Source of the DNA: Alphaproteobacteria bacterium
GTDB taxonomy: Bacteria > Pseudomonadota > Alphaproteobacteria > CAAHEQ01 > UBA3637
Length of the DNA: 54,865 nucleotides
Direction of reading: 5' to 3'
Assembly: GCA_045532865.1 (NCBI GenBank)
Contig: JAZSGT010000025.1
Coordinates: forward strand, 1-54,865
Shown: positions 3,295 to 53,001 of the stretch, piece after piece
Layout of the letters: each line of letters begins with the position of its first letter
Numbering within the stretch: the first letter of the stretch is position 1
Position numbers and translations under genes: made by a program
The notes under the pieces: model-generated
Told to the model about the DNA's origin: nothing
Databases searched by the model: none
Seen by the model: only the letters and a program-made list of their open reading frames with translations

Positions 3295-4716
3295 ATGACT
3301 GATGAATTTGATGTAAGTAGCAAAATTCAAAAATTAAAACATCGCATAAGTTGGATAAAAAAGGGTTTAAGTATTGCTGAACGATTTGTTCAAAACAAAA
3401 GCTCTGAGCTTGAAAAAATTGATGAAGAAATTGAGCTTAATGCCAATCCAGAAATTGAACATGATGCGCGTAAGCTTTCATTGGATTCAGAGCAATCAAA
3501 GGAATTGTTACAAACCATAGAAAAAGAATTAGATGGTTTGACAGATTCACTGTTAAATTCTGATGAAGATGATGATGAAGACGGTGAAAATGATAAGATT
3601 AAGAACTTAAGGAGATATAGACGTTGGTTGAAACGAGGACTGAATTTTGTTGGCGTTTTTATTCAAGAAAAAAATTTGGAATTGAAAGATATTGAAAAAC
3701 AATTAGAACAGTTAGAAATTTCATTTTTAGATCCTAGTGAGCGTAAGTCAAAAGCAGTTATTCCTACTGAAATGTTAGTGCAAAATGGTTCACAAGAAAT
3801 GACCATTGGTATTGGTTATAGAGGTGCTGCAAGACGGGGTGCTTTAACAAAGAAAGAAAAAGATGAATTGGTTGAGGTTGCTGAAAAGAAAAAGAAAGAA
3901 GAAAGAGATGGTTCATCGGCACAGCCAGGACAATTGCAACCAGGAAAACCTCGTCCAGGAGACAAAATCCAACAACCTTGGAAACTGATGACTCCTGCAG
4001 AGAAAAAAGATTTTATTACAAAGAAATTAAAACAAAAAGATCCACGCCAACAAAAAGAAGCCATTGACTTATTGAAAAAACCAGAAAACAAACCTTTCCT
4101 CGAAGAGTTTATGAAGGATAAAGAATTTGAAAAAACATACAAAAATGCAGAAACAATGGTCGGTAAATATGATAAAATTCGAAACAGCATTCGTAAGAAT
4201 TTAAAAACACTGATGCGTTCATCTTCTGATGTGGTAAAGGCTCAAGTTGCGTTACTGCGTTCAGGAAAGGTTGGTTCAGCTGTTGCAGGATTAAAAGAAA
4301 TATCATCTTCTGTTAAATTTGATAATGAAGTTGGAATGGCTGCAAAAGGCGTTGTTAAAGGTGTTGAAGATCTTTACAAAATGTTTAATATTAAACCAGA
4401 TGAAGCTTTGAATAAAGAAATGTTAGAAGAGGCTCGTCCCGTCTTTACGCATCAGATGGCTGAAAAAGGAAGAAATGACCGTGAAATAGATTTAAAATCA
4501 CGTCAAAATAAGGTTTGGGGCGAATCAAGAGAATTAACGGATGAAGAACGGGCAGCCTTAAAACGAATCTCTCAATCAACAGGATCAGATAAGTTGCCAT
4601 CCGAATCAAAGAAAGAAGATATGAAACTGGTTAAAGACTTGTTGGTTGATACAGTTAAAAGTGCCAAAGCAAAATCTATTGTTCCTCCAATTGTGGTAAA
4701 AGGAATGGAAAAATAA
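3295..4716 (+). CDS. Hypothetical Lys/Glu-rich coiled-coil protein with an internal N-terminal duplication
   Basis: 473-aa ORF with SD-like AGGAG upstream. It is highly charged with low-complexity stretches. I recognise no family motif. Confidence 0.6.
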   Translation: MTDEFDVSSKIQKLKHRISWIKKGLSIAERFVQNKSSELEKIDEEIELNANPEIEHDARKLSLDSEQSKELLQTIEKELDGLTDSLLNSDEDDDEDGENDKIKNLRRYRRWLKRGLNFVGVFIQEKNLELKDIEKQLEQLEISFLDPSERKSKAVIPTEMLVQNGSQEMTIGIGYRGAARRGALTKKEKDELVEVAEKKKKEERDGSSAQPGQLQPGKPRPGDKIQQPWKLMTPAEKKDFITKKLKQKDPRQQKEAIDLLKKPENKPFLEEFMKDKEFEKTYKNAETMVGKYDKIRNSIRKNLKTLMRSSSDVVKAQVALLRSGKVGSAVAGLKEISSSVKFDNEVGMAAKGVVKGVEDLYKMFNIKPDEALNKEMLEEARPVFTHQMAEKGRNDREIDLKSRQNKVWGESRELTDEERAALKRISQSTGSDKLPSESKKEDMKLVKDLLVDTVKSAKAKSIVPPIVVKGMEK

Positions 4717-6725: not shown

Positions 6726-8081
6726 TTAAAAATAAAAATATTTTGACAAGTTATCTAAAAGAGATGATGGTTCTTCTTTTGTAATAGATTTATCCTGTAT
6801 AATAACGGGAGGTTCTGAATGTAATGCTGGAATATTGTTTTGTTGTTCAATAGCTTGTTTCTCAATAGATGGTGTGATTTTATTAATAGCTTCAATTTCG
6901 GCATTTGATAAAATAATGTCTTGAGGAACAATATACTCTGGTAAAGGTTGCTGTTCAATTAAAACAATAGGATGAACCATTTTTGGCATTTGTGGCGAAG
7001 CAATTTCTTGAGGTTGTACGATCTCTTCTTGCTTAATTGGTTCAATTGTTTTTAAAGGTGCAGAAGGTGATTCCTGTATGTAGTGTACAACCTCTTCTTC
7101 AATAGCAACCGGTTCTCCCTCTTTAATGATTTGTTTGCGTGTTGTAATGGTTTTTCTAATCCCTTGAGTAGGAGGTAAAATAACTTTATCTTGCTCAATA
7201 AGTCCCGTTGTTGATGCAACATTTTGAGTCGATACTGCGTGTTGAACATGAGGTGTGTGCCCTTGCATGTTAAGAGTTAAATTTTGGCAACCTTCTGATG
7301 TGTTCATACAATCTTGACTAGCAATTGTTGGCTTTTCAAGATTCAAAAAAGGTGTTGGTTTCATCCATACTGGATCAACTTTTGTATGAGCTGGTGTCTC
7401 TATTTTGCTTTGAACAAGTTTTGCAACCTCGGGCATTGGAAAAGATGGATGTGATGGAATATGAGGTTTTTTTTCAAAGGTTAACAACATATATCCGGTT
7501 TTGTTTTGGTTGACCGCATTGTTTGATGCATAATGAACACCGATATTGCCTGTGTCAAAATTAATGTAATCAACATATTGCGCCAAGCTTAATGAAGATG
7601 GAGTGGTATGTGTTAAATTGCACGAAAATTCAGGGGCAATGACTTGAACGGCATTTTGATTTAAAATGCCCAATCTTGAAAATGCTGTTTGACAAGTTGG
7701 GAAAATATTACCTGCTTTTATTTTATAATCAATGATTAAATCGACTCCAGCTGAATCGGTTAATTTTTTTGTATCAATTAAACGGGCAGAAAGAATATCT
7801 AAATTAACTTGAGCATTGTTTGTTATGGCAGGAATAGATATCCCTTTGCCAATACATGTTTTTGATGTTGGATCAGCTTCGCAAATTGTAATAGGAGTGT
7901 TTATATTATTTTCTAACAAATAATTGATATGTTCGAATAAATGTTCTTTTGTTACTGCTTGAAACGCTGGAAGACAAGCTTTGTTTTGACATATGATTGG
8001 AGATACATCCATAGCTAAACTTTGGCTAGATAAGCATGTTATACTGATAAGAGAAAAGCTTTTAATTAATAGTTTTTTCAT
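6726..8081 (-). CDS. Hypothetical secreted protein
   Basis: 451-aa ORF with an N-terminal signal-peptide-like segment (MKKLLIKSFSLISITCLSSQSLA) and a Pro/Gln/Ile/Glu-rich C-terminal half. It is adjacent to, and co-oriented with, the M16 peptidase gene. Confidence 0.6.
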   Translation of the reverse strand: MKKLLIKSFSLISITCLSSQSLAMDVSPIICQNKACLPAFQAVTKEHLFEHINYLLENNINTPITICEADPTSKTCIGKGISIPAITNNAQVNLDILSARLIDTKKLTDSAGVDLIIDYKIKAGNIFPTCQTAFSRLGILNQNAVQVIAPEFSCNLTHTTPSSLSLAQYVDYINFDTGNIGVHYASNNAVNQNKTGYMLLTFEKKPHIPSHPSFPMPEVAKLVQSKIETPAHTKVDPVWMKPTPFLNLEKPTIASQDCMNTSEGCQNLTLNMQGHTPHVQHAVSTQNVASTTGLIEQDKVILPPTQGIRKTITTRKQIIKEGEPVAIEEEVVHYIQESPSAPLKTIEPIKQEEIVQPQEIASPQMPKMVHPIVLIEQQPLPEYIVPQDIILSNAEIEAINKITPSIEKQAIEQQNNIPALHSEPPVIIQDKSITKEEPSSLLDNLSKYFYF

Positions 8082-14186: not shown

Positions 14187-15851
<1,665 letters not shown>

Positions 15852-16139
15852 TTAAGCTAAAATTCCGAGTACATCGGATTCTTTCATGATTAATAAGTCT
15901 TCACCATTAATTTTGATTTCAGTTCCAGACCATTTACTAAATAAGACTTTGTCGCCTTCTTTTAAAGTCATTGGAATCATATTTCCTTTTTCATCACGGC
16001 CACCAGGACCAACAGCAGTTACAACACCTTGAGATGGTTTTTCTTTTGCTGTGTCTGGAATGATGATGCCACCAGCTGTTCTGTTTTCTTCTTGTGTGCG
16101 TTTGATGACAACACGATCAAGTAATGGTTTAAAATTCAT
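15852..16139 (-). CDS. groS: Co-chaperonin GroES (Cpn10)
   Basis: 95 aa ([14 protein letters not shown]...[13 protein letters not shown]...), directly upstream of groEL. Confidence 0.95.
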
Positions 16140-16190
16140 TGTTTCTATATCCTTTCAAGTTTTAAGTTTCGATGTATATTAAATAGTATG

Positions 16191-16223
16191 TAAGCACGCA
16201 AAAGTCAAGGGTTTGCGTGCTTA
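16191..16223. promoter_or_regulatory. 12-bp-arm inverted repeat (CIRCE-like arms) upstream of groES
   Basis: TAAGCACGCAAA-N9-TTTGCGTGCTTA, 52-84 nt upstream of the groES ATG. On the minus strand it overlaps a TTGACT -35-like hexamer. The outer 9 nt of each arm match the CIRCE half-site TTAGCACTC at 7/9. Confidence 0.4.
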
Positions 16224-16277
16224 TTTTAATAGTTTTCAACAATAATTTTTAAACAAGAGAAGTTTTTATATAAAAAA

Positions 16278-18080
16278 TTATTCATCACCAATTTTAAGGG
16301 CATTGATAAATGCTGTTTGAGGGATTTCAACATTCCCAAATTGACGCATTCTCTTTTTACCTTCTTTTTGTTTTTCAAGCAGTTTTCTTTTGCGAGTGAT
16401 ATCCCCACCATAACATTTTGCTGTAACGTCTTTTCTAAAGGCAGAAATATCTTCTCTTGCAATGATTTTACCACCAATACTTGCTTGGATTGGAATTTTA
16501 AATTGATGACGAGGGATGAGGGTTTTTAATCTTTCGCAAATTTGGCGACCTCTACGTTCAGCTTGTGACCTGTGTGCCAAAAATGCTAAGGCATCAACTT
16601 GCTCACCGTGAACCATAATGTTCACACGTACAAGGTCACTGCGTTCATAATCTGAAACTTCATAGTCAAAGCTTGCATATCCTCTTGAAATGGACTTTAA
16701 TCTATCGTAAAAATCAAAAACAATTTCATTGAGTGGCAAATGATAAACAACCATTGCTCTGTTGCCAACATATGTTAAGTCTTTTTGGACACCACGCCTT
16801 TCTGTGCAAAGTTGTAAAATGCCACCTAAGTATTCATCAGGTGTTAAAATACTTGCTTTCACCCAGGGTTCTTCAATAAATTGAATAGATGAAGGGTCGG
16901 GCATGTCAGCAGGGTTATGCATAGTTAAAACAGTACCGTTTGTTAAATGCACATTATAAGCTACAGAAGGGGCTGTTGTGATAAGGTCTAAATTAAACTC
17001 ACGACTTAAACGCTCCTGGATAATTTCCATATGCAAAAGACCTAAGAACCCACATCTAAATCCTTGACCGAGTGCTTGAGATTTGTCAGGTGTGAATTGG
17101 AAACTTGCGTCATTTAATTGAAGTTTTCCAAGTGATTCTTTTAAGTTTTCATAATCACTCATATCCACAGGGAACAAAGAGCAAAAAACAACGCTTAAAC
17201 TTGGTTTAAACCCTGGGAGTGCCTCATTTGTTGGATTTTTTTCATCAGTAATTGTATCTCCAACACGTGTTTCACCAATGGATTTGATACCACAAATAAT
17301 AAAGCCAAGTTCACCTGTTTTAAGTTCAGTGGTATCTTGCATTTTTGGCATAAAGTGTCCCAATCTTTCCACTTTATAAACAGCATTTGTTGCCATCATT
17401 TTGATAGATGTACCTTTTTTGAGGGTGCCGTCAATAACACGAACTAAAACGATAATGCCTAAATATGAATCATACCAAGAATCAACAAGCATAGCTTTTA
17501 AAGGAGCATTTGAATCCCCTTCGGGAGCCGGTAATTTAGTAACGATTGTTTCTAAAACTTCATCAATACCAATTCCTGTTTTGGCAGAAATAAGAGGGGC
17601 TTCTGATGCGTCAATTCCAATCACATCTTCAATTTGAGCTTTGACTCTGTCAGGTTCGGCAGCCGGTAAGTCAATTTTGTTGATAATAGGCACAATTTCA
17701 TGATTTGCATCCAATGCTTTATAAACATTTGCAAGCGTCTGAGCTTCAACACCTTGTGATGCGTCAACAACCAAAAGAGAACCTTCACAAGCTGCAAGAG
17801 AACGGCTGACTTCATACCCAAAGTCAACGTGGCCTGGGGTGTCAATAAGATTGAGAATATAATCTTTCCCATCTTGTGCTTTGTAATTTAAACGAACAGT
17901 TTGTGCTTTAATGGTAATGCCTCGTTCGCGTTCAATATCCATGTTATCGAGAAGTTGTTCTTTCATTTCTCTATCAGTAACAGCCCCACATTTTTGAATG
18001 AGTCTGTCTGCAAGAGTTGATTTGCCATGGTCAATATGTGCAACAATTGAAAAATTTCTGATATGTGATAAGTCTGTCAT
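16278..18080 (-). CDS. lepA: Translation elongation factor 4 (LepA)
   Basis: 600 aa with the GTPase G1 motif AHIDHGKST and full-length LepA-type sequence. Confidence 0.97.
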
Positions 18081-18129
18081 TTGTAATCCTTTTGATTTTT
18101 GCGTATCTTATCAAAAAAAAATCAAAAAA

Positions 18130-18246
18130 TCAAGAAATAAAGAAAGCTCAAGACACCGAAGTGCTTGAGCTTAATATCGAAATGAATTTCTTATTAGCAA
18201 CTTGACAATCAAAACCAATATGATTTAGCTAAAAATCTTTTCGACA
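18130..18246 (-). ncRNA. Predicted tracrRNA of the type II-C CRISPR-Cas9 system
   Basis: The minus strand of 18197-18222 (CATATTGGTTTTGATTGTCAAGTTGC) is perfectly complementary to 26 nt of the minus-strand crRNA repeat. Upstream on the minus strand there is TTGACA (18280-18275), 17 nt, then AATAAT (18257-18252). Downstream come TAATAAG (nexus-like) and the hairpin GCTCAAGCAC-TTCG-GTGTCTTGAGC (18170-18146) followed by TTTCTTTATTTC. The ends are approximate. Confidence 0.8.
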
Positions 18247-18347
18247 CCTTTATTATTATCTTTAATTTTTTTTATGTCAACTTGTTTTTTGTAAAAAATA
18301 ATGATAATTCTTTAGTATTATTTGAAATTATCATTTGTGAGGGAAAA

Positions 18348-21300
18348 ATGAAATACAGATTAGGTCTAGATATGGGGGCAACATCTATTGGATGGGCTGT
18401 TTTTGATATTGAAAACAAAACACTTGTGAAAACAGGGGTTCGTATTTTTGATGATGGGCGTGAGGATAAAAGTAAAGCATCATTGTGTGTAAAAAGACGT
18501 GATGCAAGAGGGGCAAGACGTCGCCAAAATAGAAAAGTGATACAAAAAAAGGTACTTTTGAAAAAACTGGTTGACTTTGGTTTATTCCCTGTTGATAAAA
18601 ATGAACAGCAAAATTTGAAAAATCTTAATCCATATGAATTAAGAGCAAAAGCTTTGGATGAAAAAATTTCATTATTTGAGTTGGGACGTATTTGTTTTAA
18701 CCTTGTTCAAAGAAAGGGATTTTTATCAAATCGTAAAGATGATAAATCTGAAGGGGGTAAATTAAAAGAGGGTTATCAAAAATTAAAAGATGAAATGAGT
18801 GAAAATAATTGTCGCACATATGGTGAATATTTATATAAAAAATATCCAAATGTTCGACTAAAAAATACATTTGATGAAACAGGAAAATTTATAGGTGGAT
18901 TATTTCCTTTTAGAGAAATATACAAACAAGAATTTGATTGTATATTTGAAAAGCAACGTACTTTTTATCCTTCTATTTTAACAGATAGTGTTATACAACA
19001 TATTCAAGAAGTTTTGTTTTTTCAGCGACCATTGAAAGAGACAGAAGAAGGTGTTTGTACCTTTGAGGAAAATGAAAAATGTATTGCAAAAGCTCATCCC
19101 TTGTTTCAGTCATTTAGAATTTGGCAACAAATTGTTTCTTTGACATTTTCGGGGGAAATAGATTCTGAATACAATCAGTTAACAAAGGAGCGATTAGAAA
19201 AACTTGCTTATATTGCCGAACATCCGGCTAATTTTATTTCGACCAAAAAACGAGTAATAGCATATTCAAATATTAAATCTTGGCTAGAATTGGATAAAAA
19301 GGGTTACTTTAATTATGAAAAGCAAAAAAGTAATACAGAATTAGCAGAAGGTGTTTTGGTGAATACAACGGAATATGCAATTTCTCAATCACAATATTTT
19401 AAGGATTTTTGGAATGCTTTTGATGAAGATACAAAGGGTGAAATTATTAATATATTATCTCGTCCTCAAAGGTATATTGATTTTTCAAAAACAAAATTAT
19501 CAATAGAAAAACAAGATGAATTAATTAAAAATTATTTAAAAAAGCGTTTCCATCTTTCTGAAGATGCAGCAAATGAATTATTATATGAAATTAATTTAGA
19601 AGATGGTTTTTCATCTTTGTCACAAAAGGCAATCTCAAAAATTTTACCATTTATGATGCATGGGCAATTATATTCTGATGCATGTGAGTCTGCTGGATAT
19701 CATCATTCTGTTAAAGAGTATACAAAAAGAGATTTTCTGCCATATTATGGTGAAATATTGGCTCAAAGTTGTTTAGGGAAGAAGCCTAATCCTAAAACAG
19801 AGGAAGAAAGATATGGCAAGATTAATAATGCAACAGTTCATGTTGCCCTTAATCAGATGAGGCATTTGGTTAACGAATTGATATCATTGTATGGTAAGCC
19901 ATTTGACATTTCTATTGAATATGCAAGAGATTTACCAGCTTCAACTGCAGAACGTAAAAAATTGATTCAAACACGCGATAGTAATGAGGCTGAAAATCAA
20001 AAGATTATTGATGAATTGAATAAAAAAATTGAACCAAGGAATTGGTCAAAAAAAGATATTGAAAAGTATAAAATCTGGAAAAATCTTGGTACACCAAAGG
20101 GGGCGAATCCATTAGAGTGTCGGGAATGTCCTTTTACAGGTGAGAAAATATCAGTTTCGGCTTTAATGAATGGTGATTTGTTCCAAGTAGAGCATTTAAT
20201 CCCATTTTCAAGATGTTTTGATGACAGCATTCATAATAAAGTGATAGCTTCAGCAATGGCGAACAAATATAAAGGAGCAAAAACGCCTTACGAAGCTTTT
20301 CACGAAAGTAAAGACGGATTTGATTGGAGAGAAATTCAAAAACGTGCCAAAAAATTAAATTTGGAACAACAATGGCGATTTTCTAAAAATGCAATGATAA
20401 AGTTTGAGGAAAAAGAGGGTCCAATTGCGAGATCTCTTAATGATACAAGATATATGACAAGATTGTTGCAACAATATTTGTTGCCGATTGTGCATGAAGA
20501 TGGTAGCAAAACCGTACAAGCAGTTGTGGGGCAATTAACATCAATGGTTAGAAAATCATGGGGTTTAAATCAATATAAAAATAAAGAAGAAGCAGAAGCT
20601 TATCGTGCCTTACATAATCATCATGCTATGGATGCAGTTGTTGTTTCAGCAATTGATAGAGGGCAAATTGAAAAGGTATCTAGAGATTTAAAAAAGATGT
20701 CAGATTTTGTTATTGATCGTTTTAAAGATGACTTATTTAAATTCAAAGATACAAGTGTTTCAAAAGAAGAAAAAGCTGAGTTGAAGAAAAAAATTAAGGA
20801 TTTTATCAGGGATAAAAAAGAAGGTATCGTGAATGAATATATTCAAATGCCAGAGGGAATGGTTGTATCGGCATTGCGAACGCTTGTTGAAAATATTAAT
20901 ATTTCACATAAACCTAAACTTAAAAAATTAACTGATTCTCATTCAACGATAGGTAAATTGCATGAAGACACAGCCTATGGTTTTAAAGAGTTTATTGATG
21001 ATGTATCTTTAAAAGCAAAATTTAAGTGTGGAGAAAAGATTGTTGATAAAGAGATTGTTGAATATATTCCAATGTTTTATAATAAAGATGATAAGAAGGC
21101 ATATTATGATGCTTATAAAGCATGGTTTATATTAGATGGAAAAGCCAAAACATTAGATGCAAAAACAAAAGAAGAAAAACAAATCAAAAAAGAATTGGAA
21201 AGACAAGAAAAAGAGGCTATCCAATTATTACGGGAATCTTCTTTGAAAGCGTTTAAATGGTTTGTTGGTGGAGGTAATTTTTGTGCTGAGATTTATGAAA

Positions 21301-21764
21301 TTAATCCTCAAAACAAAATCAGAGGCGTTGTAACAAAAGATGGGGGTGTTTGGAAGGGTGAAATTGTTTCAAATTATAATGCCACTATTCGAAATGAAAG
21401 AGGTGAAAAAATCTCTTATTGGCAATATAAATACCCAAATGCAAAACGGATTATGTCATTAAAACGGAATGACATGGTGCTGGGAACTTTTACACGTGAA
21501 GAGGCGTATCAAGATGATTTTCCTTTGGGTATTCAAAATTATGTAAGAAGCATTTTTGAAAAAGATGATACACTTATTGAAACTAATGTTTTGTTTAGAG
21601 TGAAGAAAATTGGGGGAAATGGGCAAATTGCATTAACGCCCCATGATATTGCTAAAGAAGAAAAAAACACAAAATCGTGGGTTGGGACAGCAATATCATT
21701 ACAAAAATATAGAGCAAAAAAAGTTTTTGTTTCACCAACAGGGAGAATTTTAAATGCCAAATAG
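18348..21764 (+). CDS. cas9: Cas9 endonuclease, type II-C-like (1138 aa)
   Basis: The expected Cas9 motifs are present: RuvC-I MKYRLGLDMGATSIGWAV; Arg-rich bridge helix RRDARGARRRQNRK; RuvC-II ISIEYARDL; HNH QVEHLIPFSRCFDDSIHNKVIASAMANKYKGAKTPYEAF; RuvC-III HNHHAMDAVVV. The ATG at 18348 has GAGGG upstream. The ORF-track TTG at 18282 is rejected as the start. Confidence 0.95.
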   Translation: MKYRLGLDMGATSIGWAVFDIENKTLVKTGVRIFDDGREDKSKASLCVKRRDARGARRRQNRKVIQKKVLLKKLVDFGLFPVDKNEQQNLKNLNPYELRAKALDEKISLFELGRICFNLVQRKGFLSNRKDDKSEGGKLKEGYQKLKDEMSENNCRTYGEYLYKKYPNVRLKNTFDETGKFIGGLFPFREIYKQEFDCIFEKQRTFYPSILTDSVIQHIQEVLFFQRPLKETEEGVCTFEENEKCIAKAHPLFQSFRIWQQIVSLTFSGEIDSEYNQLTKERLEKLAYIAEHPANFISTKKRVIAYSNIKSWLELDKKGYFNYEKQKSNTELAEGVLVNTTEYAISQSQYFKDFWNAFDEDTKGEIINILSRPQRYIDFSKTKLSIEKQDELIKNYLKKRFHLSEDAANELLYEINLEDGFSSLSQKAISKILPFMMHGQLYSDACESAGYHHSVKEYTKRDFLPYYGEILAQSCLGKKPNPKTEEERYGKINNATVHVALNQMRHLVNELISLYGKPFDISIEYARDLPASTAERKKLIQTRDSNEAENQKIIDELNKKIEPRNWSKKDIEKYKIWKNLGTPKGANPLECRECPFTGEKISVSALMNGDLFQVEHLIPFSRCFDDSIHNKVIASAMANKYKGAKTPYEAFHESKDGFDWREIQKRAKKLNLEQQWRFSKNAMIKFEEKEGPIARSLNDTRYMTRLLQQYLLPIVHEDGSKTVQAVVGQLTSMVRKSWGLNQYKNKEEAEAYRALHNHHAMDAVVVSAIDRGQIEKVSRDLKKMSDFVIDRFKDDLFKFKDTSVSKEEKAELKKKIKDFIRDKKEGIVNEYIQMPEGMVVSALRTLVENINISHKPKLKKLTDSHSTIGKLHEDTAYGFKEFIDDVSLKAKFKCGEKIVDKEIVEYIPMFYNKDDKKAYYDAYKAWFILDGKAKTLDAKTKEEKQIKKELERQEKEAIQLLRESSLKAFKWFVGGGNFCAEIYEINPQNKIRGVVTKDGGVWKGEIVSNYNATIRNERGEKISYWQYKYPNAKRIMSLKRNDMVLGTFTREEAYQDDFPLGIQNYVRSIFEKDDTLIETNVLFRVKKIGGNGQIALTPHDIAKEEKNTKSWVGTAISLQKYRAKKVFVSPTGRILNAK

Positions 21765-22653
21765 GATTATAGAACTTATGAGTGATGGACTGAAAGTGTC
21801 AGTTAATAGAGGCTTTTTGCACGTTGAAAAAGAAGGGAATGTTCTAGCGAACATTCCCTTTAATTCTATCTTATCTTTGGTTGTAACGGGGCATCAAATT
21901 ATTTATACCGACAATCTACTTAGACGTTTATGTGAAGAAAATATCCCACTCATTATTTTGGGGAAAAATTATCTTCCCACTGGGATGCTATATTCTTTTG
22001 AGGGACACCATAAGCAGATGGAAATACAGCATCTGCAAATTGAACAAAAAAAGCCATTATACAAAAAACTTTGGCAATCTATTATTCAAGAAAAGATTAA
22101 AAATCAGTCAAAAGTTTTGGATTATTTTGGACTAGAAAATCCAATTAAAGAAATTTCAAAACATGTATTGTCAGGAGATACGGATAACAAAGAAGGTTAT
22201 GCTGCGAAACTCTATTTTAAAAGTTTGTTTGGGAATAATTTTGTGCGTAATCGCGAATTAGATGGTGTGAATGCTTATTTAAATTATGGATACGCTGTTT
22301 TACGTTCAGCTCTGGCTAGATATGTTGTTGCGAGTGGATTAAATCCCTCTTATGGTATTAATCATCACAATAAGCTTAACCCTTTTTGTTTGGTGGATGA
22401 TTTAATTGAGCCATTTAGACCTGTTGTTGATAAAATTGTTTTTGGGTTTTTTATTCAAAAAAAGATTTTATCCGAATTAACAAGGGATGATAAGGCTGTG
22501 TTTTCAGCTTTGCTTATGGAAGAATTTAAAACAAAAGAGGGATATTCTCCGTTTTATGTTATTTTGCAAGAATGTGTATGGGATTTGGTTAAAAGTTATA
22601 AAAAAGAAAAGTCTTGTTTTGATTTTGACCCATATTTGATTAGTGATGATTAA
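21754..22653 (+). CDS. cas1: CRISPR-associated endonuclease Cas1 (type II)
   Basis: 299 aa with NYGYAVLRSALARYVVASGLNPSYGINHHNKLNPFCLVDDLIEPFRP. It overlaps the cas9 3' end by 11 nt. Confidence 0.95.
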   Translation: MPNRIIELMSDGLKVSVNRGFLHVEKEGNVLANIPFNSILSLVVTGHQIIYTDNLLRRLCEENIPLIILGKNYLPTGMLYSFEGHHKQMEIQHLQIEQKKPLYKKLWQSIIQEKIKNQSKVLDYFGLENPIKEISKHVLSGDTDNKEGYAAKLYFKSLFGNNFVRNRELDGVNAYLNYGYAVLRSALARYVVASGLNPSYGINHHNKLNPFCLVDDLIEPFRPVVDKIVFGFFIQKKILSELTRDDKAVFSALLMEEFKTKEGYSPFYVILQECVWDLVKSYKKEKSCFDFDPYLISDD

Positions 22654-22990
22654 AATGAAAGAAAAATTAAATGGAAGAAAACTCATGTGGATGATGGTTA
22701 TGTTTGATTTGCCAACAGAGACAAAAGCACAAAGAAAATCAGCAACAAAATTTCGTAAATTTTTGATGGATGAAGGTTTTGAAATGGTACAATTTTCAGT
22801 TTATGTTCAATTCACAGGGACATGGGAAAGCTCACAAAAATTTGTGAGAGCTATTCAACAAAATAATCCCACATATGGAGATGTGAATATTTTGTTTTTC
22901 ACCGATAAACAATTTGAAAGTATTATCCACATTAAAAATAGTGAGAAAAAAAAGTTAAAAAAACAGCCTGATCAATTTGAATTATTCTAA
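22643..22990 (+). CDS. cas2: CRISPR-associated endoribonuclease Cas2
   Basis: About 110 aa (MWMMVMFDLPTETKAQRKSATKFRKFLMDEGFEMVQFSVYVQF). It overlaps the cas1 stop. Alternative ATG starts at 22646 and 22655 are possible. Confidence 0.9.
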   Translation: MMIKMKEKLNGRKLMWMMVMFDLPTETKAQRKSATKFRKFLMDEGFEMVQFSVYVQFTGTWESSQKFVRAIQQNNPTYGDVNILFFTDKQFESIIHIKNSEKKKLKKQPDQFELF

Positions 22991-23115
22991 AATTGATGAA
23001 ATTTGATTGCGAATCGGAGTGAGAAAACGAATTAATTTGATGAAAAATGATAAGAAAATATATTTAAAAAAATGAATTTTTTAAGTGAAAACTGAGGGTG
23101 AAAATAGTGTTTTTT

Positions 23116-23161
23116 AAAATAAAAATGCTTAATTTTGATTTAAAAATCAATATATTAAGCA
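23116..23161 (-). terminator. Minus-strand intrinsic terminator between CRISPR array and cas2
   Basis: Hairpin TGCTTAAT..TTGAT...ATCAA..ATTAAGCA (23126-23161). On the minus strand it is followed by TTTTTATTTT (23125-23116). There is no T-run on the plus-strand side. Confidence 0.55.
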
Positions 23162-23166
23162 CTTAT

Positions 23167-24915
23167 ATTGTAGCATATTGGTTTTGATTGTCAAGTTGCA
23201 ACGAAAAAGGTTATGAGGTTTTAAACGAGATTATTGTAGCATATTGGTTTTGATTGTCAAGTTGCAACTATGAAACGATAAAAGAGTCTCCCTTTTTGAT
23301 TGTAGCATATTGGTTTTGATTGTCAAGTTGCAACGAAGTTTCATAGAATATTTTATATCTTTTTATTGTAGCATATTGGTTTTGATTGTCAAGTTGCAAC
23401 TCTTTTGTTAAAGGAAATTGAAGAATATTTATTGTAGCATATTGGTTTTGATTGTCAAGTTGCAACAAAGGGGTGGTCGGCGAATATGGCGAATAAATTG
23501 TAGCATATTGGTTTTGATTGTCAAGTTGCCACGCCTGCCTCTTGTGCTTCAAGTTCGGCTATATTGTAGCATATTGGTTTTGATTGTCAAGTTGCAACGG
23601 GTGGTATTCTAATTCCCCTTCTTGAATTATTGTAGCATATTGGTTTTGATTGTCAAGTTGCAACCCAAAAATACACCATGGCAGATGTAATTAAATTGTA
23701 GCATATTGGTTTTGATTGTCAAGTTGCAACCATCCCGCATTTGCAACCGAACCTTTCTGCATTGTAGCATATTGGTTTTGATTGTCAAGTTGCAACTTAT
23801 TGCTTGATTCTTTTAATGAAGCCGCAATTGTAGCATATTGGTTTTGATTGTCAAGTTGCAACAAATATCTAGATACATGCCTACGCCTAAACATTGTAGC
23901 ATATTGGTTTTGATTGTCAAGTTGCAACCCAAAGTCGTTGAGCCTCAATTTGTTGCATATTGTAGCATATTGGTTTTGATTGTCAAGTTGCAACTAATGT
24001 TCTGACTCATATGGCTGTCATCAAATTGTAGCATATTGGTTTTGATTGTCAAGTTGCAACTTTTTCCCTTCCGTAAATGTCGAATCGTGATTGTAGCATA
24101 TTGGTTTTGATTGTCAAGTTGCAACGATTGACCTTATTAAGCGTGAGTTAAGAAAATTGTAGCATATTGGTTTTGATTGTCAAGTTGCAACTGATGATGG
24201 CTGATGGTGATGAGGCTGCGAATTGTAGCATATTGGTTTTGATTGTCAAGTTGCAACGTACCACGCTAAGTTGAGGTGTTTCATTGGATTGTAGCATATT
24301 GGTTTTGATTGTCAAGTTGCAACGTCCCCTCTTTCAAGTTTTTCAATATAGCATTGTAGCATATTGGTTTTGATTGTCAAGTTGCAACTCAACAATGTCC
24401 TTCTCGTTCGTAAATTCATTGTAGCATATTGGTTTTGATTGTCAAGTTGCAACTAACATTAGCAATCATTGCCTTAATGTTGGATTGTAGCATATTGGTT
24501 TTGATTGTCAAGTTGCAACCGAGTCAGCGTTAAATAAACCGGATTCATAATTGTAGCATATTGGTTTTGATTGTCAAGTTGCAACCGTTAATGTGTCGCA
24601 GTCTATTTTTTACATATTGTAGCATATTGGTTTTGATTGTCAAGTTGCAACGATTGGTTGTGCGGCTTCATTAAAAGAATCATTGTAGCATATTGGTTTT
24701 GATTGTCAAGTTGCAACCGCCTTTATTGCTTTGAAGAATTGCCCTGTATTGTAGCATATTGGTTTTGATTGTCAAGTTGCAACGTACGCACCCGTGAAGT
24801 TACGAGTCGCATTATTGTAGCATATTGGTTTTGATTGTCAAGTTGCAACTTAAACTGGAAAAGACTCCTTGTCTTTTCAATTGTAGCATATTGGTTTTGA
24901 TTGTCAATTTGAGTA
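23167..24915 (-). CRISPR. CRISPR array: 27 x 36-nt repeats, 26 spacers
   Basis: The plus-strand repeat is ATTGTAGCATATTGGTTTTGATTGTCAAGTTGCAAC. Repeat starts: 23167, 23233, 23299, 23365, 23431, 23497, 23563, 23629, 23695, 23761, 23827, 23893, 23959, 24025, 24090, 24156, 24222, 24288, 24353, 24418, 24484, 24550, 24616, 24682, 24748, 24814, 24880. Spacers are 30 nt, except spacers 14, 18 and 19 at 29 nt. Repeat 6 has one SNP (23530 A>C), and the last repeat is degenerate in its final 8 nt. The minus strand is inferred from the repeat polarity (GTTG...CTACAAT), the tracrRNA orientation, the embedded promoters and the terminator position. Confidence 0.97.
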
Positions 24916-25113
24916 GATTGTTTTCACTGCGATAATGAAAAAGAGTGTTTGTAAATTTTAATGGTTTAATGTGTTGCTTCTTTTTTGTGAGTAAACGAGT
25001 CTTTTTTCTTAAATCTTTTTGTTAAAAATGAAAGATAATAATTTACTTTTGAAAGTTTTTTTTCTATAATAACACTAAATGTAAGTTTTTTTATAATTTT
25101 TAAGGAGAAAGAT

Positions 25114-25437
25114 ATGCGCAATATTGGCGATTTAATGAAAAAAGCTCAAATGGTTCAATCTCAAATGACAATCCTTCAAACAAAGATGGAAAAACAAGAA
25201 TTTGCAGGTGAAGCTGCAAATGGTGCTGTTAAAGTTGTTGTAACAGGGAAACATTTGCCAATTTCTGTTTCAATTAATCCAGCTATTGTTGATCCTCAGG
25301 ATACGGAAACATTGGAAGATTTGGTTTTAATCGCTATGCGTTCTGCATACGAAAATGTTGAAAAAACAATGGCTGCAGAAATGGAACGTATTCAATCTTC
25401 ATTAGGCTTGCCTTCAGGCTTTAAAATGCCATTTTAA
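25114..25437 (+). CDS. ybaB: Nucleoid-associated protein YbaB/EbfC family
   Basis: 107 aa (NIGDLMKKAQMVQSQM...GAVKVVVTGKH...). SD AAGGAG lies upstream, and recR follows. Confidence 0.9.
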   Translation: MRNIGDLMKKAQMVQSQMTILQTKMEKQEFAGEAANGAVKVVVTGKHLPISVSINPAIVDPQDTETLEDLVLIAMRSAYENVEKTMAAEMERIQSSLGLPSGFKMPF

Positions 25438-25446
25438 AGGTTTGAG

Positions 25447-26040
25447 ATGGCTGCTCCAGAATTAGAACAACTCATTAGTTTGCTTTCAAAATTGCCTGCG
25501 TTGGGACCTCGGTCTGCAAGGCGGGCAGTTTTGTCATTGTTGAAACAAAAAGAAAGTAAATTTGCCCCACTAGTGGCTTCAATGCAAACGGTTTTGGAAC
25601 GGGTTCAACCTTGTCCACAATGTGGAAATATGGATACGAGTGTTCCTTGCTCTGTTTGTTCTGATCTGAAAAGAGATTCTTCAATTGTCTGTGTTGTTCA
25701 AGATGTTGCAGATTTGTGGGCTCTTGAACGGGCCGGTGTATTTAAGGGTGTATATCATGTGTTGGGCGGTGTTCTTTCTGCTTTGGATGGTATAGGACCT
25801 GATGAACTTAAGATTGAAGAATTAATTGAACGTATCACAACAAAAAATGTTAAAGAAATAATTTTAGCCCTTCCAGCTTCTGTTGAAGGGCAAACAACTG
25901 TTCATTATCTTTCGGATAAATTGAAAGATTATGATGTGAATATTTCAACGCTTTCTAGAGGTGTTCCTGTTGGAGGAGAGTTGGATTATTTAGATGATGG
26001 AACGCTACAGCTGGCATTTAAGGCAAGGCGAAATGTATAG
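25447..26040 (+). CDS. recR: Recombination protein RecR
   Basis: 197 aa with an N-terminal HhH, the Cys4 zinc finger CPQCGNMDTSVPCSVCSD and a Toprim-like region. Confidence 0.95.
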   Translation: MAAPELEQLISLLSKLPALGPRSARRAVLSLLKQKESKFAPLVASMQTVLERVQPCPQCGNMDTSVPCSVCSDLKRDSSIVCVVQDVADLWALERAGVFKGVYHVLGGVLSALDGIGPDELKIEELIERITTKNVKEIILALPASVEGQTTVHYLSDKLKDYDVNISTLSRGVPVGGELDYLDDGTLQLAFKARRNV

Positions 26041-26048
26041 GTGAAACA

Positions 26049-26243
26049 ATGGAAGATATAAAAAAAGCAGTCGCAAATTTAGAGCAAGCAGTTGTAAAGT
26101 TAGAAACGGCTTTATATCAAACAAAAAAAGATAAAGAGCAGGCTATTGATAAGGTGACTGAACTTAAAAATGTTATCCGTAAAACATATATGAGAATAGA
26201 TAATGCATTGGGGACATTTCACCAAAATCAGGGAGGTGAATAA
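26049..26243 (+). CDS. Small coiled-coil protein upstream of zapA (function unknown)
   Basis: 64-aa heptad-rich ORF whose stop overlaps the zapA start (ATAATG). Its position resembles the small coiled-coil genes that precede zapA in alphaproteobacteria. Confidence 0.5.
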   Translation: MEDIKKAVANLEQAVVKLETALYQTKKDKEQAIDKVTELKNVIRKTYMRIDNALGTFHQNQGGE

Positions 26244-48307: not shown

Positions 48308-50119
48308 ATGGAAAAATATCCAACAAAAAATCAAAAAGTTATAGATTGGGTAAACTCAGTTGCAAAGATAACGGAGCCAGATGAAATTTATTGGTGTGAC
48401 GGAACAGAAAAGGAAAATAAAAAGATTTGTTCACTTTTGGTGGAAAATGGAACTTTTATTCCTTTGAATCCTAAAAAACGTCCCAATAGTTTTTTGGCTC
48501 GTTCAAACCCAAAAGATGTAGCTCGTGTTGAAAGCAGAACATTTATTTGCTCTGAAAAAGAAATTGATGCTGGACCGACAAACAATTGGGCACCTCCTAA
48601 AAAGATGAAGAAAACACTTTCAAAATTAATGAAAGGTTGCATGCGTGGTAGAACTATGTATGTTATTCCATTTTCTATGGGTCCATTGGGTTCAAATATT
48701 GCACAAATAGGGGTTGAGATTACAGACTCCCCTTATGTTGTTGCAAATATGCGTATTATGACACGCATGGGTAAAAAAGTGTGGACTGTTTTAAAAGATA
48801 AAGATTTTGTCCGTTGCTTTCATTCTGTTGGGGCACCTCTTAAAAAAGGCGAAAAAGATGTTGCATGGCCATGTAATCCTGAAAAAACATATATTACGCA
48901 TTTTCCAGAAACAAAAGAAATTATCTCTTTTGGGAGTGGATACGGTGGAAATGCTCTTTTGGGTAAAAAATGTTTGGCATTGCGTATTGCAACGACTATG
49001 GCAAGAGAAGATGGTTGGCTTGCAGAACATATGCTCATTGTAGGACTTAAAAATAAAAAATTGGGATTAACTTCATACGTTGCAGCTGCATTCCCAAGTG
49101 CATGTGGTAAAACAAATATGGCAATGCTTATTCCCCCAAAAGCAATGGCTGATTGGGAAGTTTCAACTGTTGGAGATGATATTGCATGGATTAAACCGGA
49201 TGAAACAGGTCAATTAAGAGCAATTAATCCAGAAGCTGGATTCTTTGGTGTTGCGCCGGGTACTTCAATAAAAACAAATAAAAATGCTGTTGAATCATGT
49301 AGAGCAAATACCATTTTTACAAATGTTGCTTTAACAGATGATGGTGATGTTTGGTGGGAAGGCTTAACTGAAAAGGCTCCAAAACATTTGATTGATTGGC
49401 AAGGGAATGATTGGACACCAGATTGTGGAAGACCAGCAGCACATCCAAATTCACGTTTTACAGCTCCTGCAAGTCAATGTCCATCTATTGATGAAGAATG
49501 GGAAAATCCTGTGGGCGTTCCAATTGATGCATTTATTTTTGGGGGGCGTTTAGCAAGTAACACACCTCTTGTTTATCAATCATATAATTGGCAACATGGT
49601 GTGTTTTTAGCCAGTACAATGGGTTCCGAAAAAACAGCGGCAGCTGAAGGCAAAACAGGAGAAATTAGAAGAGATCCAATGGCCATGTTGCCATTTTGTG
49701 GATACAATATGGGTGATTATTGGTCACATTGGCTTTCAATGGGCGCAAAGCTTGATAAAAAACCACTCATTTTCCGTGTCAACTGGTTCAGAAAAGATAA
49801 GGAAGGACACTTTATGTGGCCTGGGTTTGGTGAAAACATGCGTGTTTTGGAATGGATTGTAAAACGCGTTAATGGGCAAGCAAACGCAACTGAAAGTGTT
49901 TTTGGATATTCTCCACGATATGAAGACTTGAGATGGAAAGGTTTGAGTATGACGGAAGAATGCTTTAATGAATTGATGAGTGTTGATGTTGATATGGCAT
50001 TGTCAGATGTTAAAGCGCAAAGTGATTATTTTAAAACACTTAGAAAACAAAAGCGTCTTCCTCAAGATTTTGAAGCTGAACTTTTGTTGCTTCAAAAACG
50101 ATTGGAAAGAAGAAAATAA
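48308..50119 (+). CDS. pckG: Phosphoenolpyruvate carboxykinase (GTP)
   Basis: About 603 aa with the GTP-PEPCK P-loop FPSACGKTN plus GDDIAWI and NPNSRFTAP. The ATG at 48308 has AGGAGAGGG upstream. Confidence 0.95.
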
Positions 50120-50149
50120 AAAAGGGGGAGCTAAAAGCTCCCTTTTTTA
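50117..50149. terminator. Bidirectional intrinsic terminator after pckG
   Basis: AAAAAAGGGGGAGC-TAAAA-GCTCCCTTTTTT. Confidence 0.75.
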
Positions 50150-50184
50150 TTGAAAAAAAATTTATTTAAAATGAGTTTTTAAAT

Positions 50185-51531
50185 TTATTTTTGTTGAACA
50201 TAAGCTTTTTGTTGGGGGTCATAAATAAATGTTTCAATGGGGTATGAAGTTTGCTCCCATTTAATTTTTAACATATTTTTATTTTGAACGAGTAGAGTTC
50301 CACAATCTGAAACTTGGCTTCTGCAAAAAATATTTTTATCTTCTTGTTGAATTAAAGTATCTGACCAAGCGTTGTGGATAACTTTATAATGTGTGTTTGA
50401 TAAATATGTGTATACATTTTTTTGAGGATGTTTTTTATATGTGAAAGATTGATTATCTTTTGTTTGAATTGTAATAGAATTATTTTCTTTTTTTAATGTT
50501 ATTTCTTCACCTGTGGATAATTTTATATATTTATTTTCTTTTTTATAAATATAGTCTTCTGTATTCGAGTCAGTGATGTAATATTTTTCGTTTGTTTTAG
50601 GTGGACAAAAAGAATTCTTATAGAAGCTAATATCTTCTTGAGGAACAATTTGTTTTTGCTTGTTGACTGTTTCAATTTTTTCAAGTAAAGCACATTTTTC
50701 ATCTAATGGATAAATAACTTGAATCTCTTTATCCTCAGGTATAAAAAATCTTGAAATAAGTTCTTGATGAATTTTTTTTGAGTTTTTTAACATGTCCTCA
50801 TAATAAGCATTTGAATTTGAAAAATGATATCGAACAAAAGTAAATGGCTCATAGATTGTTAACAACTCTCCACCATTAAATATAAATTGTTTCCAAAAAT
50901 CATAATCTTCAGCTGAAATATAAGATTCATTGTATCGAATATTATGTTTTTGAACAAAACTTTTTTTAAAAATAGCCGCAGCATTAGGAAAAGTATTGTT
51001 GAAGATAAAAGAAATTGCAAAATTATTTTTAACAGGTGTGTATTTGTTCCACTTAAGAATCTCTTGTGCTGAAAGTTTATCTTTTATATCGATTACAGTA
51101 CCACTTAAAGCTACATATTTGGGATTTTCTTCTAATATTTTGATGGATTTTTCAAGTCGGAAAGGAAGAGATTGATCATCTGAATCCATGATTGCAATAT
51201 ATTTTCCTTTTGCTTTATCCATACCTTTATTTCTTGAAAAAGAGATACCTTTATTTTCATCATTGATAAATAATTTTATACGATTATCTTTTTGAGCATA
51301 TTGTTGTGCTATGATAGCAGAAGTGTCTGTTGATGCATCATCAACAATGATTAATTCAAAATCTTTGTAAGTTTGATTTAAAATGGAATCGATTGCTCTT
51401 GGTAGTAAGTCAGCACGGTTGTAAACAGGCATAACAACAGATATAGTAGGTGTTGTGATTTTTTGATATCCATATATACATAATAAAGAAATAAGAGTTG
51501 TTGATGTGATGAGTTTAAATTTATTTTTCAT
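50185..51531 (-). CDS. Glycosyltransferase family 2 with N-terminal anchor and long C-terminal extension
   Basis: VVMPVYNRADLLPRAIDSILNQTYKDFELIIVDDASTD is a canonical GT2 N-terminus. The ATG at 51531 is preferred over the TTG at 51543. Confidence 0.8.
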   Translation of the reverse strand: MKNKFKLITSTTLISLLCIYGYQKITTPTISVVMPVYNRADLLPRAIDSILNQTYKDFELIIVDDASTDTSAIIAQQYAQKDNRIKLFINDENKGISFSRNKGMDKAKGKYIAIMDSDDQSLPFRLEKSIKILEENPKYVALSGTVIDIKDKLSAQEILKWNKYTPVKNNFAISFIFNNTFPNAAAIFKKSFVQKHNIRYNESYISAEDYDFWKQFIFNGGELLTIYEPFTFVRYHFSNSNAYYEDMLKNSKKIHQELISRFFIPEDKEIQVIYPLDEKCALLEKIETVNKQKQIVPQEDISFYKNSFCPPKTNEKYYITDSNTEDYIYKKENKYIKLSTGEEITLKKENNSITIQTKDNQSFTYKKHPQKNVYTYLSNTHYKVIHNAWSDTLIQQEDKNIFCRSQVSDCGTLLVQNKNMLKIKWEQTSYPIETFIYDPQQKAYVQQK

Positions 51532-51792
51532 GTACGATAACAATGGGTTGATATTAAATTTTTTTTATTATCGCAACTTGATTAAAAATGTCAAGATTGT
51601 TTTTGAAACTCCAGATTATGAAGGGAGGAACATAATCTGGAGTAACGGGTTTATTTTTTTGTTAATAACATTTAAAATATGGGGATAAATATAAGCTATT
51701 CAATTGAACTTTGAGTTGTATTCAAAAGGCTTTTTATTTGACTTTTTATGATTTTTTGCTACAATCAAATCAAAAATTTAAGAGAGGAAAAA

Positions 51793-53001
51793 ATGCCAGA
51801 AATTAAATGCCCAAAATGCCAAAATGTTTTTACGGTTGATGAAACAGATTATGCTTTGATTGCATCCCAAATTCGAAATGTTGAATTTGAAAAAGAAATA
51901 AATGAGAAAACAGCTCAAGTTGTGAAAGAAAAAAATCAAGAGTTGCAATTACTTCAAATGAAAATGAATGCTGAAAAAGAAAAAGCTGTTTTTGATATTT
52001 TAAAAGAGGTGGAACGGTTGAAAGCGCAAGTTTCAACTTTTGATAAAGATAAAGCCTTGGCACTAAGTGAGGCATTGGCAATTCAAAAAGAAGAAATCGC
52101 ATTCAAAGAACAAGAAATTTTAAAATTAAAGGGGCAGTTAAATGATTCTCAAAAAGATTCTTTGTTGAGAGAAAAATCTTTGAAAGAAAATTTTGAAGTT
52201 CAGTTAAAAGCAAAGGATGAAACAATTTCTTTTTATAAAGATTTAAAAACAAAAATGTCGACCAAAATGGTTGGGGAAACTTTGGAACAGCATTGTGAAA
52301 TTGAATTTAATAAATTGCGTTCAACAGCGTTTCCAAATGCTTATTTTGAAAAAGATAATGATTCAAAAACGGGGAGTAAAGGGGATTACATTTTTAAAGA
52401 ATCAACAGAAGATGGGATTGAGTTTATCTCCATTATGTTTGAGATGAAAAACGAAATGTCAACAACGGCTACAAAGCACAAAAATGAAGATTTCTTTAAG
52501 GAATTGGATAAGGATAGGAATGAAAAAGGATGTGAATATGCTGTGTTGGTTTCTTTGTTGGAAGCTGATAATGAACTTTATAACACGGGAATTGTTGATG
52601 TTTCGCACAAATACCCAAAAATGTATGTAATTAGGCCACAGTTTTTTATTTCTATGATTTCTTTGCTTAGAAATGCAGCGCTTAATTCTGTTCAATATCG
52701 TAAACAAGTGGCAGAATTTAAAAATCAAAATATCGATATTTCAAAATTTGAAGATGATATGAATGATTTTAAAGATAAGTTTTCACGTAATTTTCAATTA
52801 GCCAGTGATAAATTTAGAAAAGCGATTGACGAAATTGATAAGACCATTGATCATCTTCAAAAAACAAAAGATGCGTTATTATCGTCTGAAAATAACTTGA
52901 GATTGGCGAATAATAGGGCGCAAGATTTAACAGTTAAACGCTTAACAAGGAACAATCCAACCATGAAACAAATGTTTGATGCGTTGAAAAATGAAAATTA
53001 A
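51793..53001 (+). CDS. DUF2130-family protein (zinc-ribbon N-terminus, coiled-coil)
   Basis: MPEIKCPKCQNVFTVDETDY..., a long coiled coil and a C-terminal conserved block (GDYIF...MFEMKNE). SD AGAGAGGAAA lies upstream of the ATG at 51793. Confidence 0.75.
   Translation: MPEIKCPKCQNVFTVDETDYALIASQIRNVEFEKEINEKTAQVVKEKNQELQLLQMKMNAEKEKAVFDILKEVERLKAQVSTFDKDKALALSEALAIQKEEIAFKEQEILKLKGQLNDSQKDSLLREKSLKENFEVQLKAKDETISFYKDLKTKMSTKMVGETLEQHCEIEFNKLRSTAFPNAYFEKDNDSKTGSKGDYIFKESTEDGIEFISIMFEMKNEMSTTATKHKNEDFFKELDKDRNEKGCEYAVLVSLLEADNELYNTGIVDVSHKYPKMYVIRPQFFISMISLLRNAALNSVQYRKQVAEFKNQNIDISKFEDDMNDFKDKFSRNFQLASDKFRKAIDEIDKTIDHLQKTKDALLSSENNLRLANNRAQDLTVKRLTRNNPTMKQMFDALKNEN

Follow-up and report, generated by a model that had tools for sequence, protein, structure and literature searches.

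The segment at positions 18130-24915 of contig JAZSGT010000025.1, from an uncultured Alphaproteobacteria bacterium (assembly GCA_045532865.1), encodes a CRISPR-Cas9 module, and the question that this locus raises is whether the module is an intact immune system and, if so, how its RNAs are read and how it came to lie at its present chromosomal site. Here, the window refers to the whole stretch of DNA that was analysed, i.e. 54,865 nucleotides of this contig. We consider it highly probable that the module is an intact chromosomal type II-C CRISPR-Cas9 adaptive immune locus of an AT-rich gut alphaproteobacterium and that it is built along the lines of the Neisseria meningitidis (Nme) system. Its parts are a gene for a trans-activating CRISPR RNA (tracrRNA), the cas9, cas1 and cas2 genes and an array in which 27 repeats alternate with 26 unique spacers, and each of them was found where the initial annotation had placed it. 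As in type II systems generally, the array and the cas1-cas2 adaptation genes lie beside cas9. The operon has the minimal cas9-cas1-cas2 composition of subtype II-C, and neither csn2 nor cas4 was found when every open reading frame (ORF) of at least 100 amino acids (aa) across the 54.9-kb window was scanned against Pfam.

The effector gene cas9 (18348-21764, plus strand) starts with ATG and encodes a protein of 1138 aa with matches in both Pfam (HNH_4, RuvC_III and Cas9_a) and NCBIfam, where it scores 548 bits against the equivalog TIGR01865 (cut-off 100) over profile positions 1-1070 of 1070. This single large effector has a split RuvC domain with an inserted HNH domain, and its catalytic residues are intact, as the initial annotation had also read them: D8, E524, H616, N639, H759 and D762 are invariant among 118 aligned homologues, and H616 is aligned to the catalytic H582 of ThermoCas9. 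The hidden frameshifts and catalytic substitutions against which that reading had been hedged were not seen in the cas genes on alignment. The residue ahead of the HNH histidine is E615 instead of the usual D. We rejected the idea that this V-E-H variant is a catalytic lesion because E is the norm at this position, being found in 111 of the 118 homologues; E615 is, in other words, a trait of the clade. In the mechanism that we propose, Cas9 in complex with CRISPR RNA (crRNA) and tracrRNA would cut foreign DNA flanked by a protospacer adjacent motif (PAM), with E615/H616/N639 forming the HNH site and D8/E524/H759/D762 the RuvC site.

In the PDB, the best sequence matches of the protein are ThermoCas9 (E = 1.7e-65) and GeoCas9 (1.2e-61), with Nme1Cas9 also among them, while its C-terminal ~270 aa have no sequence match. 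An AlphaFold model based on a 42-sequence alignment has a mean predicted local distance difference test (pLDDT) score of 86 and a predicted template modelling (pTM) score of 0.72, and the confidence extends to the C-terminal third, including the region without a PDB sequence match. The top Foldseek matches of this model are all II-C proteins, i.e. Nme1Cas9, ThermoCas9, HpaCas9 and GeoCas9, each aligned along its whole length with 20-22% identity. By sequence and structure alike, SaCas9 and St1Cas9 fall below the II-C matches in score, and SpCas9 far below them. By its best sequence and structure matches, the protein thus groups with the II-C orthologues. Alphaproteobacteria commonly have type II-C systems. 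The Cas9 of the window is a member of a gut-alphaproteobacterial II-C clade of ~80 clusters with at least 45% identity, all of ~1130-1210 aa. The clade is not new; it is already present in public metagenome-assembled genomes (MAGs), and NCBI names its members 'type II CRISPR RNA-guided endonuclease Cas9 [Alphaproteobacteria bacterium]'. The locus is an ordinary, correctly typed member of this well-populated clade and, as it is conserved and annotated in close relatives, the novelty that the initial annotation had held open falls away.

Downstream of cas9, and overlapping its stop codon by 11 nt, cas1 (21754-22653, plus strand) encodes a protein of 299 aa that matches PF01867 (Cas_Cas1) and scores 249 bits against TIGR03639, the type II Cas1 model. 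It is followed by cas2 (22655-22990, plus strand; PF09827 and TIGR01573), for which ATG 22655 is the most likely start codon, giving 111 aa as in the relatives; the in-frame alternatives are GTG 22643 and ATG 22646. The three genes would be transcribed together in the order cas9-cas1-cas2 from the plus strand. All three are under purifying selection: in comparisons with four relatives that carry the module at the same site, the ratio of non-synonymous to synonymous substitution rates (dN/dS) is 0.10-0.18 for cas9, 0-0.14 for cas1 and 0.02-0.03 for cas2. In the 5' part of cas1, within the codons for EGNVLANIPF (21832-21861), the arms of a perfect inverted repeat of 13 bp enclose a loop of 4 nt. 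Of the related loci, L004 retains it, L001 carries it with one mismatch and L006 lacks it. A function of this palindrome as a terminator or regulator was considered and rejected, as it lies in coding sequence, is partly conserved and has no T-tract; it is probably incidental to the coding sequence.

The RNA components are predicted to be read in the opposite direction, i.e. from the minus strand and antisense to the cas operon. The tracrRNA gene (18135-18245, minus strand, ends approximate) is recognized by its fold, its duplex with the repeat and its conservation in six lineages, and is preceded by a predicted sigma-70 promoter (18252-18280, minus strand; TTGACA-17-AATAAT) with 11 of 12 matches in a promoter scan. 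L001 shares the TTGACA hexamer of this promoter. The anti-repeat (18194-18229) corresponds to the reverse complement of the repeat except for mismatches at 7 of 36 nt; after it, the minus strand has GCUAAUAAG, a small hairpin, a terminator hairpin that is rich in GC (18146-18170) and a U-tract. Transcription of the tracrRNA would accordingly diverge from that of cas9, running from the promoter at 18280-18252 to the terminator at 18146-18170. The crRNA:tracrRNA duplex has 26 bp and a predicted energy of -41.3 kcal/mol. Six lineages, with Cas9 proteins 58-100% identical to the one in the window, have the same element upstream of cas9, and in 6 of 6 a duplex of 25-28 bp is kept by paired substitutions in repeat and anti-repeat. 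Similarly, the terminator stem is kept with differing sequences, i.e. GCUCAAGCAC, GCUCAAGUAC, GCUCUUUCAC, GUCCGGCGAC and GUCUGGAAAC, each with its complement. For these pair counts, each sequence was folded separately; a MAFFT alignment had misplaced a one-base bulge. Rfam has no family that covers this tracrRNA: at gathering thresholds nothing matched in the whole window, and a relaxed search of the tracrRNA and array regions gave chance microRNA-like matches only.

The array (23167-24915; crRNA sense on the minus strand) is composed of 36-nt repeats that read GTTGCAACTTGACAATCAAAACCAATATGCTACAAT in the crRNA sense. The 27 repeats include 25 identical copies; repeat 6 departs from these by a single mismatch, and the last repeat by five, which all lie at the end nearest ybaB. 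The 26 spacers, which are all distinct as initially annotated, are 30 nt (23 spacers) or 29 nt (3 spacers) long. Every one of the 27 repeats carries TTGACA-16-TGcTACAAT on the minus strand, amounting to 11 of 12 promoter matches plus a TG extension in the promoter scan. The last seven bases of the repeat do not pair with the tracrRNA, yet they remain TGnTAnAAT in diverged relatives, where the unpaired 3' end reads TGTTACAAT in L001 and TGATATAAT in L002 and L006. In the type II-C systems of N. meningitidis and Campylobacter jejuni, repeat-internal promoters start transcription inside the spacers (PMC5965381), and in N. meningitidis the crRNA starts at the sixth spacer nucleotide while the lone leader-adjacent repeat gives no crRNA (PMC12477760). 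The array described here has the same layout at the sequence level, with one promoter per repeat aimed into the adjacent spacer. A promoter inside each repeat implies that short crRNAs would start ~6-7 nt into the spacers and run through to the next repeat; 26 nt of that repeat would pair with the tracrRNA, leaving guides of roughly 23-24 nt.

The terminal repeat (24880-24915) is informative with respect to direction. It is degenerate, having retained the promoter half and lost the half that pairs with the tracrRNA, and the same repeat is found in L004. Because a repeat without the pairing half and with the promoter half is what remains at this end, only minus-strand crRNAs make sense, and the retained half would be precisely what is needed for launching the first crRNA. 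We weighed this reading against an orientation like that of type II-A systems, in which a plus-strand pre-crRNA would start from the cas2-proximal leader and a plus-strand tracrRNA would run toward cas9. The leader does lie between cas2 and the array, which is the position of the type II-A leader promoter, and weak promoter-like sites with 9 of 12 matches are present on the plus strand at 23037-23064 and 23140-23169. However, the plus-strand tracrRNA candidate has neither a terminator nor a stable structure, its fold being no better than that of shuffled sequence (z = +0.4) in comparison with z = -3.2 for the minus strand; the minus-strand tracrRNA has a conserved, covarying terminator and GCUAAUAAG directly after the anti-repeat; all repeats have a near-consensus promoter on the minus strand; and the half lost from the terminal repeat is exactly the one that pairs with the tracrRNA. 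As a consequence, we regard the II-A-like orientation as very unlikely and retain minus-strand transcription of tracrRNA and crRNAs.

With crRNAs read in this direction, new spacers would be inserted by Cas1-Cas2 at the cas2-proximal leader, that is, at the downstream end for crRNA transcription. The leader (22991-23166) is AT-rich and spans the distance from cas2 to the first repeat. Its repeat-proximal part is conserved in L001, L003 and L004 while the adjoining spacers differ in every relative, and from this we infer its role in acquisition. A palindrome, TTGATTTAAAAATCAA, lies at 23135-23150, 16 nt ahead of the first repeat. Its conservation extends to L001 and L003 and, in part, to L004, and it could serve in spacer integration as a site for anchoring the leader or for a host factor. 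At the other end of the array, the trailer and the ybaB upstream region (24916-25113) are 96% identical to those of L004. On the coding strand, no ORF of at least 50 aa is present in the gap between cas2 and the array or in the gap between the array and ybaB. No two lineages have a spacer in common among the 78 unique ones compared from 8 arrays, though leader, trailer and repeats are conserved. These differences fit acquisition at the cas2 end and continuing turnover, without proving either.

Is the system at work today? The initial annotation had described it as functional and recently active. The first of these attributes is plausible on the strength of dN/dS values of 0.02-0.18 for the three cas genes, near-perfect repeats and the lack of any spacer in common with relatives. 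Several points weigh in the other direction. A comparison of the whole array with 50,697 phage and 72,556 plasmid records gave chance-level matches only, all with E >= 0.1; 12 window spacers searched as exact words in IMG/VR (spacers 1, 2, 5, 6, 8 and 9 singly; 12 with 22 and 20 with 26 as pairs combined by means of IUPAC codes) gave zero matches; and an exact-word scan of JGI metagenomes with spacers 1 and 25 likewise gave zero matches. As these searches yielded no protospacer for any spacer of the window, 'recently active' is unproven, and neither a PAM nor current targets can be derived. Interference activity is predicted from the sequence. Moreover, the polarity of acquisition rests on the conserved leader, the degenerate trailer and a comparison of only 3-9 leader-proximal spacers in the relatives, whose contigs break within the arrays, and an RNase III domain was not among the scanned window proteins, in a scan that included no search aimed at host factors.

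These negative results raise the alternative that the locus is an intact-looking relic that carries out neither interference nor acquisition at present. The searches made, in which no window spacer found a protospacer, speak for it, and decay does occur in this family, the related loci L008 and L009 having a truncated cas1 and no cas2. However, protospacers are expected to be missing, given that the host is uncultured and sampling of its phages poor, and a relic is difficult to reconcile with dN/dS values in the range given for cas9, cas1 and cas2, with invariant catalytic residues and 25 identical repeats, or with a spacer content that is wholly different in each relative in spite of a common leader, trailer and repeats. 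We therefore judge an inactive relic to be improbable and favor a system that is maintained and predicted to be functional. No self-targets were found in the window or in any fetched locus when up to 6 mismatches were allowed. Of 53 spacers from related arrays that were compared with phages, spacer 1 of L008, a locus with a Cas9 58% identical to that in the window, was alone in having a match. It corresponds to the conserved, Cys-rich PCGQCIGCR motif of the Microviridae VP4 replication initiator and matches 25 faecal virus records over up to 27 of 28 bases (E = 0.05), with 3-4 mismatches over the full 30 nt and inconsistent flanks. Because these flanks have no common sequence, no PAM can be derived from them, and the match hints at a class of targets.

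How did the module come to its site? On its left lie groEL, groES and lepA (lepA, 16278-18080) on the minus strand, and on its right ybaB (25114-25437) and recR (25447-26040) on the plus strand, all identified by Pfam. Thus, the module lies between lepA and ybaB-recR, the flanks are housekeeping genes and, among the scanned ORFs of the window, none has an integrase or transposase domain; in these respects the initial annotation holds. It had left the comparison of the lepA-ybaB interval with related genomes to be made, and this comparison reveals the module at this position in at least five relatives (Cas9 80-96% identical), the same arrangement being found in L001, L004, L014 and L015 and, in part, in L003 and L005; the arrangement is hence not novel. 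The gene order groEL-groES-lepA-cas9-cas1 is found in L001, L014 and L015, with Cas9 proteins 85%, 96% and 89% identical to that of the window, respectively, and L004 (Cas9 80% identical) has cas9-cas1-cas2-array followed by ybaB-recR-zapA-ymdB-yebC-ruvC-amidase-terC. Because LepA of L001, L014 and L015 is 97.5-98.7% identical to that of the window in protein and only 83-86% in DNA, these loci and the window probably derive from different species of one genus. By contrast, in L012 and L013 (LepA ~88% identical), lepA and ybaB-recR-zapA diverge across 153-157 bp with no CRISPR locus, and these are empty sites. The intergenic spacers of these two loci have no significant similarity to the junctions in the window, being too diverged, and gave neither breakpoints nor a target-site duplication. 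We suggest that an ancestor of the genus-level clade acquired the module in the spacer between the divergently oriented lepA and ybaB genes.

Cas9 relatives that are at most 65% identical sit elsewhere, one near rho and traX and one near hipBA and a type IV secretion coupling protein. L006 and L012 both come from assembly ERZ28614196; L012 is an empty lepA-ybaB site and L006 has a module with a 63%-identical cas9 by rho and traX. If the two share one genome, that lineage keeps the module at a different site. In L008 (11772-12334) and L009, cas1 is cut to 121 aa and the array follows directly after this remnant; the decaying module adjoins hipBA and a TraG/TrwB-type coupling protein. Beside the right flank of the window, a 64-aa ORF (26049-26243, plus strand) without a Pfam or NCBIfam match lies between recR and zapA, and its position and size (62-64 aa) are conserved in L004, L012 and L013.

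The genomic setting also bears on the nature of the host. The initial annotation had taken the genome context as endosymbiont-like, and the corresponding explanation is that an alphaproteobacterium of reduced, intracellular or endosymbiotic kind maintains a defence island which it acquired recently. A GC content of 33%, densely packed housekeeping genes and the lack of tRNA or mobility genes nearby (no tRNA gene was found in the window) are features that it would account for. It does not account for the origin of the relatives: the closest Cas9 loci in species-representative genomes all belong to 'Alphaproteobacteria bacterium' MAGs, one of them from sheep rectum, and further relatives come from animal-gut and faecal metagenome assemblies. 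Nor does it fit the gene content of the window, which includes the anaerobic ribonucleotide reductase NrdD and its activase NrdG, a GTP-dependent phosphoenolpyruvate carboxykinase (PEPCK), a sulfatase, several glycosyltransferases and signalling proteins such as a response-regulator/SpoIIE phosphatase; a TerC-family protein, fatty-acid synthesis genes, BamD, LigA and RecN are encoded as well. With regard to a recent acquisition, the same site is occupied in relatives with lepA dS > 1, so the locus is old, and the GC content of the cas block (31.2%) matches that of the host (33.1% in the window). This explanation is, therefore, hardly tenable, and the endosymbiont-like label was dropped; the data fit a free-living gut anaerobe with an AT-rich (33% GC) genome, which at the level of order may be RF32-like or Rs-D84-like. 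Within the window, GC content is lowest (27%) at 50000-52000, in the surroundings of a gene for a GT2 glycosyltransferase and of the beginning of a DUF2130 gene. Two large ORFs, at 3295-4716 (plus strand, 473 aa) and 6726-8081 (minus strand, 451 aa), have no Pfam or NCBIfam match, and the latter, which lies beside an M16 peptidase gene, may encode a diverged partner subunit.

An old locus at a fixed site is not necessarily one that has been inherited together with its flanks. In comparison with L014, the groEL-groES-lepA side of the window (15250-18049) is 87.0% identical and the tracrRNA-cas9-cas1 part (18050-22720) 96.2% (Fisher p = 1e-47), and the identity switches at ~18036-18060, in the first codons of lepA. 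The cas genes have a dS of 0.07-0.14 in the same comparison, as against 1.09 for lepA. L004 has the reverse pattern, with cas9 68-85% identical at the nucleotide level and the trailer and ybaB side 82-96% identical. This mosaic identity suggests homologous recombination at a fixed site, by which congeners have swapped the module, and allelic exchange of this kind would explain the absence of mobility genes. After the ancestral entry, later swaps between congeners would have occurred through the conserved flanks and repeats, with no involvement of an integrase or transposase. Against this stands that the recombination events are read from pairwise identity profiles of metagenomic contigs, and a chimeric assembly of L014 is a possible source of the mosaic pattern. 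If the exchange is real, the locus illustrates the transfer of a CRISPR-Cas module from one congener to another at a constant chromosomal position and without the help of mobility genes.

The differences between close Cas9 alleles are not spread evenly. The least conserved 40-residue block is 1081-1120, which is 62-65% identical in all four close comparisons, and this holds even for the allele that is 96% identical overall, the rest of which is 95-100% identical to the Cas9 of the window. At the nucleotide level, the differences cluster at 21572-21713 (aa ~1076-1122), where the window has KKIGGNGQIALTPHDIAKEEKNTKS and L014, L015 and L004 have KKMN(G/S)(S/A)GTLFLVPHDIAKE(D/E)GDTKS. The patch falls in the confidently modelled, beta-rich C-terminal region of the AlphaFold model, which we presume to be the PAM-interacting domain. 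The swaps of PAM-interacting domains among Nme1, Nme2 and Nme3 provide an analogy, and the patch may reflect PAM diversification between strains. We speculate that, in this uncharacterised clade, closely related strains differ in PAM specificity, that these specificities are possibly new and that recombination shuffles them, a proposal that we hold tentatively and with more doubt than conviction. If it is true, the full -35 and extended -10 elements in each repeat would make each crRNA a strong autonomous transcription unit. Cas9 could be a practical source of a new PAM specificity; experiments alone can tell.

The value of the locus is mainly in cataloguing: the intact type II-C Cas9 proteins that come from uncultured gut lineages gain one member. 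ThermoCas9 and GeoCas9 are aligned with the Cas9 described here from residue 1 through RuvC-I, the bridge helix, the recognition (REC) lobe, RuvC-II, HNH and RuvC-III, and the fold is matched over the full length. However, sequence similarity ends at ~residue 780-870, leaving the wedge (WED) and PAM-interacting region unmatched, identity in the structural alignment is 22%, and both proteins are from thermophilic Firmicutes (Geobacillus). EHCas9, compared here by description only, is a characterised type II-C protein, likewise metagenomic, from a locus with cas9-cas1-cas2, a tracrRNA and an array, and its closest homologues are alphaproteobacterial (PMC10281378). It differs in having 1070 aa and an NGG PAM and in coming from a lagoon water sample (PMC10281378). 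A separate group of homologues of ~1050-1070 aa is only ~33% identical to the Cas9 of the window, and EHCas9 probably belongs with this group.

The closest counterpart in overall build is the Nme1Cas9 locus. The Nme repeat begins with GTTG and ends with TGCTACAAT, as does the repeat in the window. The two loci have the same gene set and order (tracrRNA, cas9, cas1, cas2, array), 36-nt repeats, spacers of ~30 nt and an array of ~1.7 kb, and Nme1Cas9 is the top structural match of the Cas9 model. Repeat-embedded promoters, crRNA starts inside the spacer and transcription toward the leader are described for the Nme locus (PMC5965381, PMC12477760) and are predicted here from the sequence. By contrast, identity in the structural alignment is ~20%, the protein has 1138 aa in comparison with 1082-1092 aa for the Nme1Cas9 chains, the HNH motif is E-H and not D-H, and the repeat has a perfect -35 element (TTGACA) besides the extended -10. 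Thus, in an uncultured gut alphaproteobacterium, a host distant from Neisseria, the locus would represent a clean natural example of the Neisseria-type arrangement, with an antisense array, one promoter per repeat and a leader downstream of transcription.

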